DNA from: a virus
Lineage: Duplodnaviria > Heunggongvirae > Uroviricota > Caudoviricetes
IMG/VR virus record: IMGVR_UViG_2778261416_000005
Coordinates: 1-5,126 of that record
Reading direction: 5' to 3' (one strand)
Length of the DNA stretch: 5,126 bases
The notes under the pieces were generated by a model. That model was not told the DNA's origin. It did no database searches and worked only from the letters and a program-made list of their open reading frames with translations. Positions 820-4,043 of the stretch are shown in pieces. Position 1 is the stretch's first letter, and each line of letters starts with the position of its first letter. A program made the position numbers and the translations under genes.

Positions 820-1044
820 ATGAATTTAGTAATTCAACGAGCCTTGAAAATTGTCGGTAGCCAAAAGCGCCTTGCCGACAAGTGTGGTGTAACGCAGCCA
901 GCAGTACACAAATGGCTGAAAGGCGGGTTGGTCTCTCCAGAGAAAGTTACCGCCATCGTTAACGCCACTGGAGGGCAGATCAAGGCTTACGAAATTCGCC
1001 CCGATTTGCCACACCTGTTTCCAAAACCGAATCAGGCAGCATAA
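820..1044 (+). CDS. Cro-like HTH regulator (Cro/YdaS-type small DNA-binding protein)
   Basis: A 74-aa ORF divergent from the repressor. SD AAGAGG at 807-812 sits 7 nt before ATG 820; in-frame ATGs at 799 and 814 lack a usable SD. Small basic protein with an HTH-like segment (GVTQPAVHKWLKGG). Stop TAA at 1042-1044. Confidence 0.75.
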   Translation: MNLVIQRALKIVGSQKRLADKCGVTQPAVHKWLKGGLVSPEKVTAIVNATGGQIKAYEIRPDLPHLFPKPNQAA

Positions 1045-1051
1045 GTAACAC

Positions 1052-1097
1052 CGCTCTTTAACAGTCATGGTCTTCATTCCCGCCGAAATGCGGGAAT
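1052..1097 (+). promoter_or_regulatory. nutR-like site: boxA (CGCTCTTTA) plus boxB-like hairpin
   Basis: boxA-like CGCTCTTTA at 1052-1060 follows the cro stop. An 8-bp perfect stem ATTCCCGC/GCGGGAAT (1076-1083 with 1090-1097) encloses a CGAAAT loop, which is GNRA-like. Position between cro and cII matches lambdoid nutR. Confidence 0.5.
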
Positions 1098-1102
1098 ACA
1101 AC

Positions 1103-1137
1103 GCGCATAAGTTGATGCGCATAACTTCTTATTTGTT
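1103..1137 (+). terminator. Candidate tR1-like hairpin upstream of cII
   Basis: Perfect 6-bp stem GCGCAT/ATGCGC (1103-1108 with 1115-1120) followed by a T-rich but interrupted tract ATAACTTCTTATTTGTT. Weak as an intrinsic terminator; lambda tR1 is Rho-dependent. Confidence 0.25.
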
Positions 1138-1180
1138 AAGGAAATACTTACATATGGTTCGTGCAAACAAACGCAACGAG
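1137..1180 (-). promoter_or_regulatory. PRE-like CII-activated promoter (TTGC-N6-TTGC boxes inside the cII 5' end)
   Basis: On the minus strand, TTGCGTTTGTTTGC lies at 1163-1176 (codons 3-8 of cII) and AAGTAT is the -10 at 1144-1149. This matches the lambda PRE architecture as I recall it. Confidence 0.6.
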
Positions 1181-1447
1181 GCTCTACGAATCGAGAGTGC
1201 GTTGCTTAACAAAATCGCAATGCTTGGAACTGAGAAGACAGCGGAAGCTGTGGGAGTTGATAAGTCGCAGATCAGCAGGTGGAAGAGGGACTGGATTCCA
1301 AAGTTCTCAATGCTGCTTGCTGTTCTTGAATGGGGTGTCGTTGACGACGACATGGCTCGATTAGCACGACAAGTTGCTTCGATTCTCACCAATAAAAAAC
1401 GCCCGGCGGCAACCGAGCGTTCTGATCAAATACAAATGGAATTTTAA
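1154..1447 (+). CDS. cII: CII transcriptional activator, near-identical to phage lambda CII
   Basis: A 97-aa protein MVRANKRNEALRIESALLNKIAMLGTEKTAEAVGVDKSQISRWKRDWIPKFSMLLAVLEWGVVDDDMARLARQVASILTNKKRPAATERSDQIQMEF, matching lambda CII from memory with about two substitutions. The upstream sequence TAAGGAAATACTTACAT ATG is also lambda-like. The track ORF 1067..1447 is an unsupported upstream extension. Confidence 0.92.
   Translation: MVRANKRNEALRIESALLNKIAMLGTEKTAEAVGVDKSQISRWKRDWIPKFSMLLAVLEWGVVDDDMARLARQVASILTNKKRPAATERSDQIQMEF
1391..1420 (-). terminator. Intrinsic terminator of the oop-like RNA
   Basis: On the minus strand, a 7-bp stem CGCUCGG/CCGGGCG (one G-U pair) with a 6-nt loop is followed by UUUUUUAUU (plus-strand A-tract at 1391-1399). 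Confidence 0.6.
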
Positions 1448-1458
1448 CAACATCCAAC
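1391..1458 (-). ncRNA. oop: oop-like antisense RNA overlapping the cII 3' end
   Basis: The minus strand reads ...CAGAACGCTCGGTTGCCGCCGGGCGTTTTTTATT, matching the 3' half of lambda OOP RNA as recalled. A perfect TATAAT -10 on the minus strand at 1465-1470 overlaps the next gene's start codon, as pO does in lambda. The 5' end is approximate. Confidence 0.55.
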
Positions 1459-1469
1459 GAGGTAATTAT

Positions 1470-1661
1470 ATGCGAAACAAAGGCTTTAATCCACCTGATA
1501 CACACAAAGAAGCTAAGCGTTTGCGCTTCCTTCGTTCCATTGATGAAAGAACTCAAATCTCTTTTGTGAAAGTTGCCAGAACTGAGCTTCTTAAGGCTGA
1601 GGCGAGGGCGTTGCTCCCGTCTCTATCCGCACAACGCAGATGGACGGTCTGTTGGCAATGA
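1470..1661 (+). CDS. Hypothetical protein (63 aa) at the position normally occupied by replication gene O
   Basis: SD GAGG at 1459-1462 sits 7 nt before ATG 1470, just after the cII stop. No family recognised. The track ORF 1374..1661 is the same frame extended upstream into cII. May be the N-terminal part of a frameshifted gene continuing in the 1573..1914 frame. Confidence 0.45.
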
Positions 1662-1914
1662 AGCAAATGGTAATTATCGATGGTACGACTACTGCAATAA
1701 CCCCGTCGATGCATGGCCGATTATTGATGACAACGAAATAGCGTTAATCCCATCAAACGACTTTGGTTGGGTTGCTATAAGTGGTTTGATGTTAAATGGC
1801 TGTTCTTCGTACATTGATCAACGTCTTGATGGTTGTTTTCAGCATAGTGATACAAACCCACTCCGCGCCGCCATGATCGTATTTCTCATGATGCAGGACG
1901 CCAATAATGCTTAG
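1573..1914 (+). CDS. Hypothetical protein, start unresolved (open frame without an ATG until 1789; possible frameshifted gene or pseudogene)
   Basis: Long open frame with protein-like composition (…[42 protein letters not shown]…). It opens with TTG and has no SD. An ATG at 1658 overlaps the stop of the preceding ORF (ATGA) but is in a third frame that closes at 1741. By position this could be a YbcN/NinE-type nin protein, but I cannot confirm it. Confidence 0.3.
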
Positions 1915-2083
1915 CCCATCCCAATCCATTCAATACCAGAAAGAAAGCGTCGAGCGGGCTTTAACGTGCGCTAACTGCGGTCAGAAGCTGCATGTGCTGG
2001 AAGTTCACGTGTGTGAGCACTGCTGCGCAGAACTGATGAGCGATCCGAATAGCTCAATGTACGAGGAAGAAGACGATGAATGA
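1907..2083 (+). CDS. ninF: NinF-like small Cys-rich (zinc-ribbon-like) nin-region protein, 58 aa
   Basis: Manual translation gives [58 protein letters not shown], with CxxC and CxxHCC motifs and an acidic tail. SD CAGGA lies 8 nt before the ATG. The start overlaps the upstream stop (ATG 1907, TAG 1912-1914) and the stop overlaps the antirepressor start by 8 nt. Absent from the ORF track because of length. NinF assignment is from memory of the lambda nin region. Confidence 0.6.
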
Positions 2084-2798
2084 GTTAATAAATGGCAATG
2101 CCATCAAAATGACAAGCATTGAAATCGCTGAGTTGGTGGGTAAGCGTCATGACAATGTGAAACGTACCATCGAAACGCTGGCTAAAAATGGTGTTATCCG
2201 GCTTCCTCAAATTGAGGTTTCCGAAAGAATCAATAACTTAGGGTTCAATGTTCAGTACGAGCATTACGTCTTCGAAGGCGAACAAGGTAAGCGAGATAGT
2301 ATTGTTGTTGTTGCCCAGTTGTCGCCAGAGTTCACCGCTCGCCTTGTTGACCGCTGGCGAGATCTTGAAGAAGCTGCGGTTAATATCCCCAAAACGCTAC
2401 CGGAAGCGTTGCGCCTTGCTGCTGATCTTGCTGAGCAGAAAATGCAACTGGAAAACCAGCTTGCAATTGCCGCACCTAAAGTTGAGTTTGCCGATCGCGT
2501 TGGCGAGGCCAGCGGAATTTTGATTGGAAACTTTGCAAAGGTTGTCGGTATTGGTCCAAACAAACTGTTTGCGTGGATGCGCGATCACAAAATCCTTATT
2601 GCTTCAGGTTCCCGGCGCAATGTGCCAATGCAGGAATATATGGATCGCGGCTATTTCACAGTGAAAGAAACAGCGGTCAACACAAATCACGGAATACAGA
2701 TATCGTTCACCACAAAAATCACCGGGCGTGGTCAACAGTGGCTGACCAGAAAGCTGCTCGATAACGGAATGCTGAAAGTAACAGGGGAGGCTGCTTAA
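2076..2798 (+). CDS. Phage regulatory protein Rha with C-terminal KilAC/ANT antirepressor domain
   Basis: A 240-aa ORF. The N-terminus (MTSIEIAELVGKRHDNVKRTIETLAKNG … LVDRW) fits the Rha domain. The C-terminus (FADRVGEASGILIGNFAKVVGIGPNKLFAWMRDHKILI … QEYMDRGYFTVKE) fits the KilAC/ANT domain. SD GAGGA lies 8 nt before ATG 2076. Confidence 0.88.
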   Translation: MNELINGNAIKMTSIEIAELVGKRHDNVKRTIETLAKNGVIRLPQIEVSERINNLGFNVQYEHYVFEGEQGKRDSIVVVAQLSPEFTARLVDRWRDLEEAAVNIPKTLPEALRLAADLAEQKMQLENQLAIAAPKVEFADRVGEASGILIGNFAKVVGIGPNKLFAWMRDHKILIASGSRRNVPMQEYMDRGYFTVKETAVNTNHGIQISFTTKITGRGQQWLTRKLLDNGMLKVTGEAA

Positions 2799-3088
2799 TG
2801 GCTAATCTACGCAAAGAAGCACGCGGCAGAGAATGCCAGGTACGTATTTACGGCGTATGCAATGGTAATCCTGAAACTACAGTTCTGGCACATTACCGGA
2901 TGGCTGGAATTTGCGGAACGGGAATGAAGCCTGACGACCTGATCGGCGCATGGGCTTGTAGCGCGTGTCACGATGAAATCGACCGACGCACCCATAATCT
3001 CGACAACAAAGACGCCAGACTTTACCACCTCGAAGGCGTGATCAGGACGCAGGCGATACTACTGAAGGAGGGGAAGATTAAGCCATGA
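2798..3088 (+). CDS. ybcO: YbcO-like DUF1364 protein (Cys/His-rich putative nuclease of lambdoid nin regions)
   Basis: A 96-aa ORF, MANLRKEARGRECQVRIYGVCNGNPETTVLAHYR…CSACHDEIDRRTH, resembling DLP12 YbcO as recalled. SD GGGGAGG lies 7 nt upstream; TAATG overlap with the antirepressor stop. Confidence 0.85.
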   Translation: MANLRKEARGRECQVRIYGVCNGNPETTVLAHYRMAGICGTGMKPDDLIGAWACSACHDEIDRRTHNLDNKDARLYHLEGVIRTQAILLKEGKIKP

Positions 3089-3447
3089 ACGAATATCAGT
3101 TTGTGCTTCCATACCCGCCGTCGGTGAATACCTACTGGCGAAGACGGGGAAGCCAATACTACATCAGCGATAAAGGCCAGAAATACCGAAAAGACGTTCA
3201 GCAAATCATCCGCCAACTTAAGTTAGACATTTTCACCAAATCACGACTCCGCATCAAAGTAATCGCAGACGTTCCGGACTCCCGCCGCCGCGACCTCGAC
3301 AACATCCTGAAAGGTTTACTCGACTCCCTTATCCACGCCGGATTTGCGGAAGACGACGAGCAATTCGATGACATTCGCGTAATTCGTGGTGTGAAAGTAC
3401 CAGGTGGAAGGCTTGGAATAAAAATCACCGAACTGGAGAACGCATGA
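3085..3447 (+). CDS. rusA: RusA Holliday junction resolvase (crossover junction endodeoxyribonuclease)
   Basis: A 120-aa ORF with RusA hallmarks (LPYPPSVNTYW…, PDSRRRDLDNILKGLLDSL…, GGRLGIKITE). SD AAGGAGGGG upstream; ATGA overlap with the ybcO stop. Confidence 0.9.
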   Translation: MNEYQFVLPYPPSVNTYWRRRGSQYYISDKGQKYRKDVQQIIRQLKLDIFTKSRLRIKVIADVPDSRRRDLDNILKGLLDSLIHAGFAEDDEQFDDIRVIRGVKVPGGRLGIKITELENA

Positions 3448-3632
3448 ACGCCACAATTCAAACGATACCAGAGCTTCTTATCCAGACACGAGGCAATCAG
3501 ACCGAAGTGGCAAGGATGCTTTCCTGCGCAAGAGGAACAGTGCTCAAGTACAACCGAGACAGCAAAGGCGAGCGTCACGTAATAGTTAACGGCGTCCTGA
3601 TGGTCAAACAGGGCAAAAGGGGAAGGCCATGA
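3444..3632 (+). CDS. ninH: NinH-like protein
   Basis: A 62-aa ORF, TIPELLIQTRGNQTEVARMLSCARGTVLKYNRDSKGERHVIVNGVLMV, matching lambda NinH (TIPDMLVEAYGNQTEVARRLKCSRGTVRKY…). ATGA overlap with the rusA stop. Confidence 0.85.
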   Translation: MNATIQTIPELLIQTRGNQTEVARMLSCARGTVLKYNRDSKGERHVIVNGVLMVKQGKRGRP

Positions 3633-3802
3633 GACTCGAAAGCGTAGCTAAATTTCATTCGCCAAAAAGCCCGATGATGAGCGACTCACCACGGGCTACG
3701 GCTTCTGACTCTCTTTCCGGTACTGATGTGATGGCTGCTATGGGGATGGCGCAATCACAAGCCGGATTCGGAATGGCTGCATTCTGCGGTACAGGGACAT
3801 AA
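3629..3802 (+). pseudogene. Q: Truncated late antiterminator Q (lambda-type N-terminal ~53 codons only)
   Basis: Manual translation from ATG 3629 (ATGA overlap with the ninH stop) gives MRLESVAKFHSPKSPMMSDSPRATASDSLSGTDVMAAMGMAQSQAGFGMAAFCG, then TGT and stop. This matches the lambda Q N-terminus as recalled, which continues KHELSQ… after FCG. Homology ends at about 3790. Confidence 0.75.
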
Positions 3803-3882
3803 AGATACAGGCCATTACCATCGAGAAGGCGGTATGGTTTTTCTTTCGGCTTTGCTGCTTCAATCTGCTTAACGGTGAGCAT
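3790..3882 (-). pseudogene. Integrase N-terminal fragment (P4/IntS-type arm-binding region, ~31 codons) truncated at a deletion junction
   Basis: Minus-strand translation from ATG 3882 gives MLTVKQIEAAKPKEKPYRLLDGNGLYLYVPV, a typical N-terminus of tRNA-associated P4-family integrases. Beyond about 3790 the reading frame is antisense Q sequence (…PQNAAIPNPACDC…). The track ORF 3655..3918 is this chimera with a GTG-start extension. Confidence 0.65.
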
Positions 3883-4043
3883 GGGTAAAAATCCGGTGGG
3901 TAAAATTATTTTATCCACTTTTTACCCGTCATGGAGTGCGGCTGTCAACGATCTGACGCGAACCATTACGAACTGTGAATCTACGGAAGTCTTGATATTC
4001 AGGGGATTTTGCGGACTGGTACGGATGGGAGCGAACTGATAAA

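Follow-up and report, generated by a model that had tools for sequence, protein, structure and literature searches.

The position directly downstream of cII is where lambda carries its O/P replication module, and the question raised by this locus is what stands at that position here. The first-pass annotation of the window (the whole stretch of DNA analysed, 5,126 nucleotides) described positions 1448-1914 as about 450 bp of unassigned coding sequence, split across frames, that had replaced the replication genes. It offered three readings: one gene of about 145 amino acids disrupted by an indel and possibly YbcN-like by its position, two genes with an unusual start, or sequence with no known homolog. 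Our analysis indicates that the stretch is almost certainly a scar left by a single deletion, through illegitimate recombination, in a P22-like prophage undergoing decay at argW. The coordinates of the features are collected in Table 1.

Table 1. Features at and around the deletion scar, in window coordinates unless a flanking record (L004) is named.
Feature	Position	Strand	Evidence or remark
cI-like LexA-family repressor, complete, 235 aa	1-708	-	ATG at 708
cII, intact, 97 aa, left anchor	1154-1447	+	Pfam Phage_CII, E = 5e-48
Terminator-like hairpin with T-run, inside the cII 3′ end	1396-1423	-	12-bp stem, 6 GC pairs
63-codon ORF	1470-1661	+	ATG 1470, GAGG at 1459-1462, TGA 1659-1661
phrog_2519 gene, 5′ fragment (codons 1-52 of 90)	1470-1625	+	Native SD GAGG 1459-1462 and ATG
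TTG-start ORF, called mechanically, 113 aa	1573-1914	+	Stop-free; no SD before 1573
Deletion junction, 2-bp TA microhomology common to both parents	1624-1625	.	Three-way alignment, BLAST segment ends
ninX 3′ fragment, codon 27 to stop, 96 codons	1624-1914	+	Open; without its own start codon or SD
Out-of-frame tail of the fusion ORF, 11 codons then TGA	1626-1661	+	ninX DNA in the wrong phase
Third-frame ORF, 33 aa	1640-1741	+	ATG 1658 included; wholly within ninX-derived DNA
ninF, intact, right anchor	1907-2083	+	Pfam NinF, E = 1.8e-12
Rha/KilAC (Ant/KilAC) antirepressor	2076-2798	+	Pfam
YbcO/DUF1364	2798-3088	+	Pfam
RusA	3085-3447	+	Pfam
NinH	3444-3632	+	Pfam
Antiterminator Q, N terminus	3629-3802	+	Pfam
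Second scar: Q codon ~54 joined to intS codon ~32	3629-3918	Q +; intS -	TA at 3790-3791 (about 3787-3791); intS ATG 3882
Third scar, outside the window: dsdX interior to near the nutL region	L004 about 7743-7890		Upstream of the window

The reading frames themselves are as first described. Listing and translation of the ORFs gave the 63-codon ORF with its good Shine-Dalgarno (SD) sequence and its stop at 1661, the frame 1573-1914 was confirmed on reading the sequence to have neither an ATG start nor an SD, and the ATG at 1658, which overlaps the TGA of the 63-aa ORF (ATGA), was found in the third frame, closing at 1741. The sole "start" of the 1573-1914 frame is the TTG at 1573, the first in-frame ATG lying far downstream, and the ORF counted from this TTG overlaps the 63-aa ORF by 89 nt in a different phase. 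Since the third-frame ORF had no family match in Pfam or PHROGs and lies entirely inside ninX-derived sequence, it is read as a chance frame from ninX DNA taken out of phase. When compared with known genes of other genomes, the DNA of the left half was 98 to 100% identical and that of the right half about 91% identical. Because each half is so closely identical to a known gene elsewhere, the two-frame pattern is not due to chance, and the stretch is indeed coding-derived sequence divided between frames. An Rfam search of the whole window (E ≤ 0.1) returned tRNA only, with no RNA family in 1448-1914, and a promoter and terminator scan of 700-2200 gave nothing above shuffled expectation inside 1448-1914, an oop-like terminator in cII alone being notable.

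The left half comes from a gene of the phrog_2519 family. Window positions 1440-1625 were 99.5 to 100% identical to the end of cII and the gene for WP_001244621.1 in 279 E. coli genomes. This 90-aa "hypothetical protein" matches phrog_2519 over its full length (profile 1-90 of 90, E = 1.9e-57), while the 63-aa ORF of the window matched at profile positions 1-59 of 90 only (E = 4.7e-31) and so is not a full-length member. The last base matching the phrog_2519 parent is the third position of codon 52, and where the 63-aa ORF switches to its 11-residue tail, the intact protein continues PKEEGYTF. Judged by its sequence, the 63-aa ORF is best described as 52 native phrog_2519 residues followed by 11 residues read out of frame. 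The intact parent was present on more than 1000 contigs; its gene follows cII in P22-like and lambdoid prophages, and in hundreds of prophages of E. coli, its function is unknown, and tblastn found it in Stx2a phages and others as well.

Some separate observations concern the 90-aa protein. An 81-aa protein from an ENA contig (P0002) is a phrog_2519 variant with an in-frame deletion of nine residues (KEEGYTFIP), which begins after LPSLP, one codon past the start of the window deletion (after LPSL). The nearly coincident starts may reflect coincidence or a local deletion-prone spot. Residues 54-88 of the intact protein, as encoded in the NU14 prophage (L002 6031-6303), bear a faint likeness to the N terminus of an O-like replication initiator (phrog_678, E = 0.009; Pfam Phage_rep_O, E = 0.048, below threshold), and one member of its protein cluster carries the name "replication protein." A comparison of the 90-aa protein with the adjacent NU14 replication protein revealed no similarity (E = 0.58), so that an origin as a duplicate of the downstream initiator N terminus was unsupported. 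The C-terminal third of the protein may be a relic of an earlier exchange of replication modules.

The right half is the 3′ part of ninX. Pfam scans of the plus-strand ORFs of the window (E ≤ 0.1) gave a match of the 1573-1911 frame to Phage_P22_NinX (PF10765 / DUF2591; 41.4 bits, gathering cutoff 22.6, E = 2.1e-10), confined to profile positions 36-114 of 114. NinX was the only family returned for this frame and nothing was returned for the other two, which leaves no place for the YbcN-like nin gene that had been considered; nor is the region without known homologs, as phrog_2519 covers its 5′ half and NinX its 3′ half. The 96-codon stub also matched phrog_444 (E = 9.1e-26), and its DNA is 91% identical to NU14 ninX from NU14 codon 27. 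When 1300-2100 was searched by megablast against 5426 complete E. coli genomes, none of them covered at least 80% of the query, and matches were seen only from 1624 on (NinX, NinF, and KilAC antirepressor genes). A search of a 5.8-billion-cluster protein set with the 96-aa stub yielded 89 matches of 58 to 130 aa, nearly all with precomputed PF10765.

We aligned the stub with the closest cluster matches and with the NU14 and NCTC8623 proteins; the seven proteins aligned have NinX N termini. The stub was colinear with full-length NinX (112-127 aa) through to the conserved C terminus, and the conserved N terminus with M(T)DYSxLSDFEINK was absent from it, unrelated sequence standing in place of the N-terminal ~26 residues. 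With a partial profile match and no ATG or SD, it is not a full-length NinX with a conventional start, and on these grounds the window ninX would be classed as a gene fragment and not as a member gene. On its 3′ side ninF follows with the standard overlap; ninE is missing, and the phrog_2519 fragment stands on the 5′ side. Intact homologs with conventional starts, which the first-pass annotation had taken as the mark of two ordinary genes, are indeed known for both frames, but none covers more than part of the frame it matches, and the genes are thus two truncated ones.

The ninX allele of the stub is mosaic. The 5′ part resembles NU14 (91% at the DNA level), and the middle, 1725-1853, is rare in E. 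coli: it reaches at most about 73% DNA identity in the 5426 complete genomes and is matched only by the rare NinX variants P0019-P0021 (Logan and ENA assemblies). There is no internal stop in the frame, and all known copies are identical; the lack of a stop could reflect either a recent event or retained use.

Where do the two halves meet? BLAST placed window positions 1036-1625, cII included, on L002 5598-6186 of NU14 as one contiguous match (98%) and positions 1624-1724 on L002 9595-9695 (91%). In the three-way alignment, the left parent was identical up to ...CCCGTCTCTA (through 1625) and diverged completely beyond, and the right parent was identical from TATCCGCACAACG... (from 1624) and diverged completely on the other side. 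Both parents thus match at 1624-1625, which makes the junction a 2-bp TA microhomology. The phrog_2519 gene breaks off with the last (third) base of codon 52 and ninX sets in with the first base of codon 27, which puts the two in different phases at the join. The missing DNA amounts to 3410 bp relative to NU14 and about 4.5 kb relative to CFSAN061762, the exact deleted length being inferred from relatives because no direct ancestor is at hand and the middle of the ninX allele (about 1725-1853) is divergent. The partial profile matches of the two halves fall on the sides expected for a deletion and support it.

The intact relatives reveal what has been lost. In the NU14 prophage, the order is cII, the 90-aa gene, replication protein, replicative helicase, ninB, ninE, ninX (9517-9864), ninF, ant, DUF1364, rusA, ninH, and Q; the CFSAN061762 prophage has the NU14 order with extra nin genes, and three independent E. 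coli prophages (NU14, CFSAN061762, and UMNK88) carry annotations with the intact order from cII to Q. The phrog_2519 and ninX halves lie about 3.4-4.5 kb and 4-7 genes apart in every intact relative examined. The missing interval holds in these relatives the 3′ end of the 90-aa gene, the replication initiator, the DnaB-type helicase, ninB, ninE, and the 5′ end of ninX, and in some of them methylase or HNH genes also fall within it. No replication initiator or helicase was found by Pfam among the plus-strand ORFs of the window from cII to the Q fragment, and when the window was mapped onto intact prophages, the replication genes fell inside the deleted interval. The replication module is therefore absent, as had been noted, but it was not replaced by some 450 bp of other sequence; it was simply deleted, and no new sequence took its place.

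These results show that a microhomology-mediated (illegitimate) deletion fused two truncated genes and removed the initiator and helicase genes. The event joined codon 52 of the phrog_2519 gene to codon 27 of ninX, out of frame, at the TA, and took out about 3.4-4.5 kb with the replication initiator and helicase genes in it. Both halves of the stretch are accounted for in full by homology to known genes.

A different reading takes the TTG-1573 ORF as a genuine, expressed, remodelled NinX-family gene and the 63-aa ORF as a second genuine gene. All 113 codons of the former are open, its Pfam NinX score lies above the gathering threshold, and the latter has a good SD and an ATG; moreover, the TTG-1573 ORF has an exact counterpart in nr, the 113-aa entry named "phage protein NinX family protein [Escherichia coli]" (P0018), which was the top cluster match to the stub. 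However, the first 17 residues of P0018 are the phrog_2519 gene out of frame and align to no NinX protein, the conserved NinX N terminus is missing, the TTG has no SD, and the ORF would overlap the 63-aa ORF by 89 nt in another phase. An open frame follows directly from the recent deletion, and the name in nr fits automatic calling by homology. We consider this reading very improbable; P0018 is likely a mis-called fragment, an annotation artefact of the scar. We give a similarly slim chance to co-option of the chimeric 63-aa peptide by the host, or to use of a remodelled NinX by the retained cI-cro-cII/nin mini-element; such a NinX might be made from TTG 1573 or through a +1 shift out of the 63-aa frame and into that of ninX within 1624-1661. 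The unbroken 96-codon ninX frame fits retained use and recent deletion equally.

Far less credible still is the single gene of about 145 aa broken by a small indel near 1600-1660. Two protein-like frames that overlap at 1573-1661 are indeed what a frameshifted gene would present, but the halves belong to unrelated families, homology to each parent stops abruptly at 1624/1625, and the 5.8-billion-cluster search uncovered no protein spanning both halves, all matches being of NinX length. Because the halves are unrelated genes kilobases apart in intact prophages, no single-base change restores a gene. Breakpoint mapping thus upholds the disruption that the first-pass annotation had recognized and overturns the indel as its cause, and we regard the chance of an indel as negligible. 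A programmed frameshift gene was rejected as well, for want of any homolog that covers the two halves. An artefact of assembly or sequencing, such as a chimeric contig or a collapsed repeat, has nothing specific in its support beyond the generic possibility with draft assemblies. Its probability is equally negligible, and it is in effect excluded by three independent assemblies, from different sources and assemblers, which agree with the window at 100% identity throughout its 5126 bp, both scars included (NCBI GCA_002521955.1 NOSF01000020.1; Logan ERR7366494; ENA ERZ27318585, a metagenome assembly).

The identity of these three assemblies also indicates a single lineage. The 63-aa fusion protein was located on 4-7 contigs by exact protein look-up, the junction was absent from all 5426 complete E. 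coli genomes, and an exact search with the junction 37-mer gave no match in GTDB species-representative genomes. The scar is a real, rare event of one lineage.

The deletion in the phrog_2519 gene and ninX is one of several in this prophage. The element is flanked on the left by evgS-evgA-emrK-emrY-dsdA-dsdX′ and on the right by tRNA-Arg(CCT) (argW), yfdC, and mlaA. A P22-like prophage that is nearly intact occupies this argW-dsdC site in E. coli UMNK88, in the same orientation and with the order argW, intS, tailspike, structural genes, lysis, Q, nin, helicase, replication protein, 90-aa gene, cII, cro, cI, early-left genes, torI, dsdC, and dsdX. The window and its flank (L004) map to UMNK88 in blocks with large gaps, giving at least three deletions. 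At the Q::intS scar, about 26.8 kb is missing relative to UMNK88 (the rest of Q, lysis, all structural genes, the tailspike, and most of intS). The third scar leaves a dsdX of 212 aa, with dsdC, torI, and the entire early-left operon gone; L004 7891-7950 has its match in UMNK88 close to the early-left region on the cI side. What is left at argW is about 4.5 kb of prophage with cI, cro, cII, ninF, Ant/KilAC, a YbcO-family nuclease, RusA, and NinH. The Q::intS deletion and the deletion from dsdX to the nutL region, together with the one described here, have reduced the prophage to this size, and this particular set of scars was found in one lineage only. Module exchange in a viable phage was considered and rejected: the two genes are each truncated and are joined out of frame, and replication, lysis, and structural genes are all lacking from the element. 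Cryptic "grounded" prophage remnants in E. coli represent a well-described path of decay (PMC6379469).

The features retained on either side of the scar call for some comment. The ninF ATG overlaps the end of ninX, and the overlap is annotated likewise in the intact prophages L001, L002, and L003. The hairpin in the 3′ end of cII had no Rfam match at E ≤ 0.1; it is a strong terminator-like structure at the position of the lambda oop terminator, and by position a putative counterpart of it. The putative oop unit lies to the left of the deletion and is retained. For the cI-like repressor, gene callers gave 189 aa on identical DNA (L005, L006), and the difference from 235 aa is a matter of start-site choice, not of mutation. 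A hairpin, TTCCCGC-CGAAAT-GCGGGAA, is present between cro and cII (1077-1096) and is repeated in reverse complement beyond cI (L004 7868-7886). By their positions, the two hairpins look like candidate boxB elements of nutR and nutL; no N gene remains. Just to the left of window base 1, directly downstream of cI and on the same strand, we observed a 98-aa ORF (L004 8195-8491, minus strand), which has no Pfam match on record. It has an N-terminal hydrophobic segment and a charged, repeat-rich tail, and its position is that of rex/sieB-type lysogen-expressed genes.

The chimeric 63-aa ORF retains the native SD and ATG of the phrog_2519 gene, while the 96-codon ninX stub is without initiation signals. 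Translation of the chimeric ORF would depend on derepression of pR. Given its missing signals, the stub is probably untranslated, or at most translated weakly from TTG 1573, and translational coupling into ninF would be lost. Neither fragment is expected to be functional, and the remnant is presumably unable to replicate.

The locus is therefore a case of ordinary prophage decay and not a new gene; the event is textbook and nothing about it is new in kind. The sole unassigned stretch of the window is explained as two truncated known genes, and the 113-aa "NinX family protein" record in nr is flagged as a likely mis-called fragment, so that the value of the result lies mainly in annotation hygiene. 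It also records, at base resolution, how microhomology-mediated deletions cut down a P22-like prophage at argW to about 4.5 kb. As for the common phrog_2519 protein of 90 aa, its function would be better studied in intact phages.

How does the locus compare with known systems? With the lambda O/P (or P22 18/12) module it has only the position after cII in common, the module being wholly absent from the window; in the relatives the module consists of a 295-aa "replication protein" and a DnaB-type helicase, as against lambda O/P proper. The replication origins of lambda-type modules usually lie inside the initiator gene. The phrog_2519 protein (WP_001244621.1) sits between cII and the replication initiator in P22-like prophages of E. 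coli, Shigella, and Salmonella and in Stx2a phages. The window fragment shares with its gene the same place after cII, the same SD, and the first 52 codons, but where the C-terminal 38 residues are intact there, the window has 11 out-of-frame residues instead. With NinX of P22-like and lambdoid phages, the stub is homologous and colinear over the C-terminal ~80%, and it stands directly upstream of ninF as they do, whereas the first ~26 codons, the start codon, the SD, and the preceding ninE are lacking in the window. A further parallel is with cryptic prophage remnants of E. coli such as CPS-53/KpLE1, at argW in K-12, DLP12, and Rac. Remnants of the CPS-53/KpLE1 type share with the window the site at the argW/intS/dsdC side, the deletion of replication, lysis, and morphogenesis genes, and the retention of a few regulatory and nin genes. 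In contrast to them, the window element derives from a P22-like prophage of the UMNK88/NU14/CUS-3 type and keeps a different subset of genes, cI-cro-cII and ninF-ant-ybcO-rusA-ninH.
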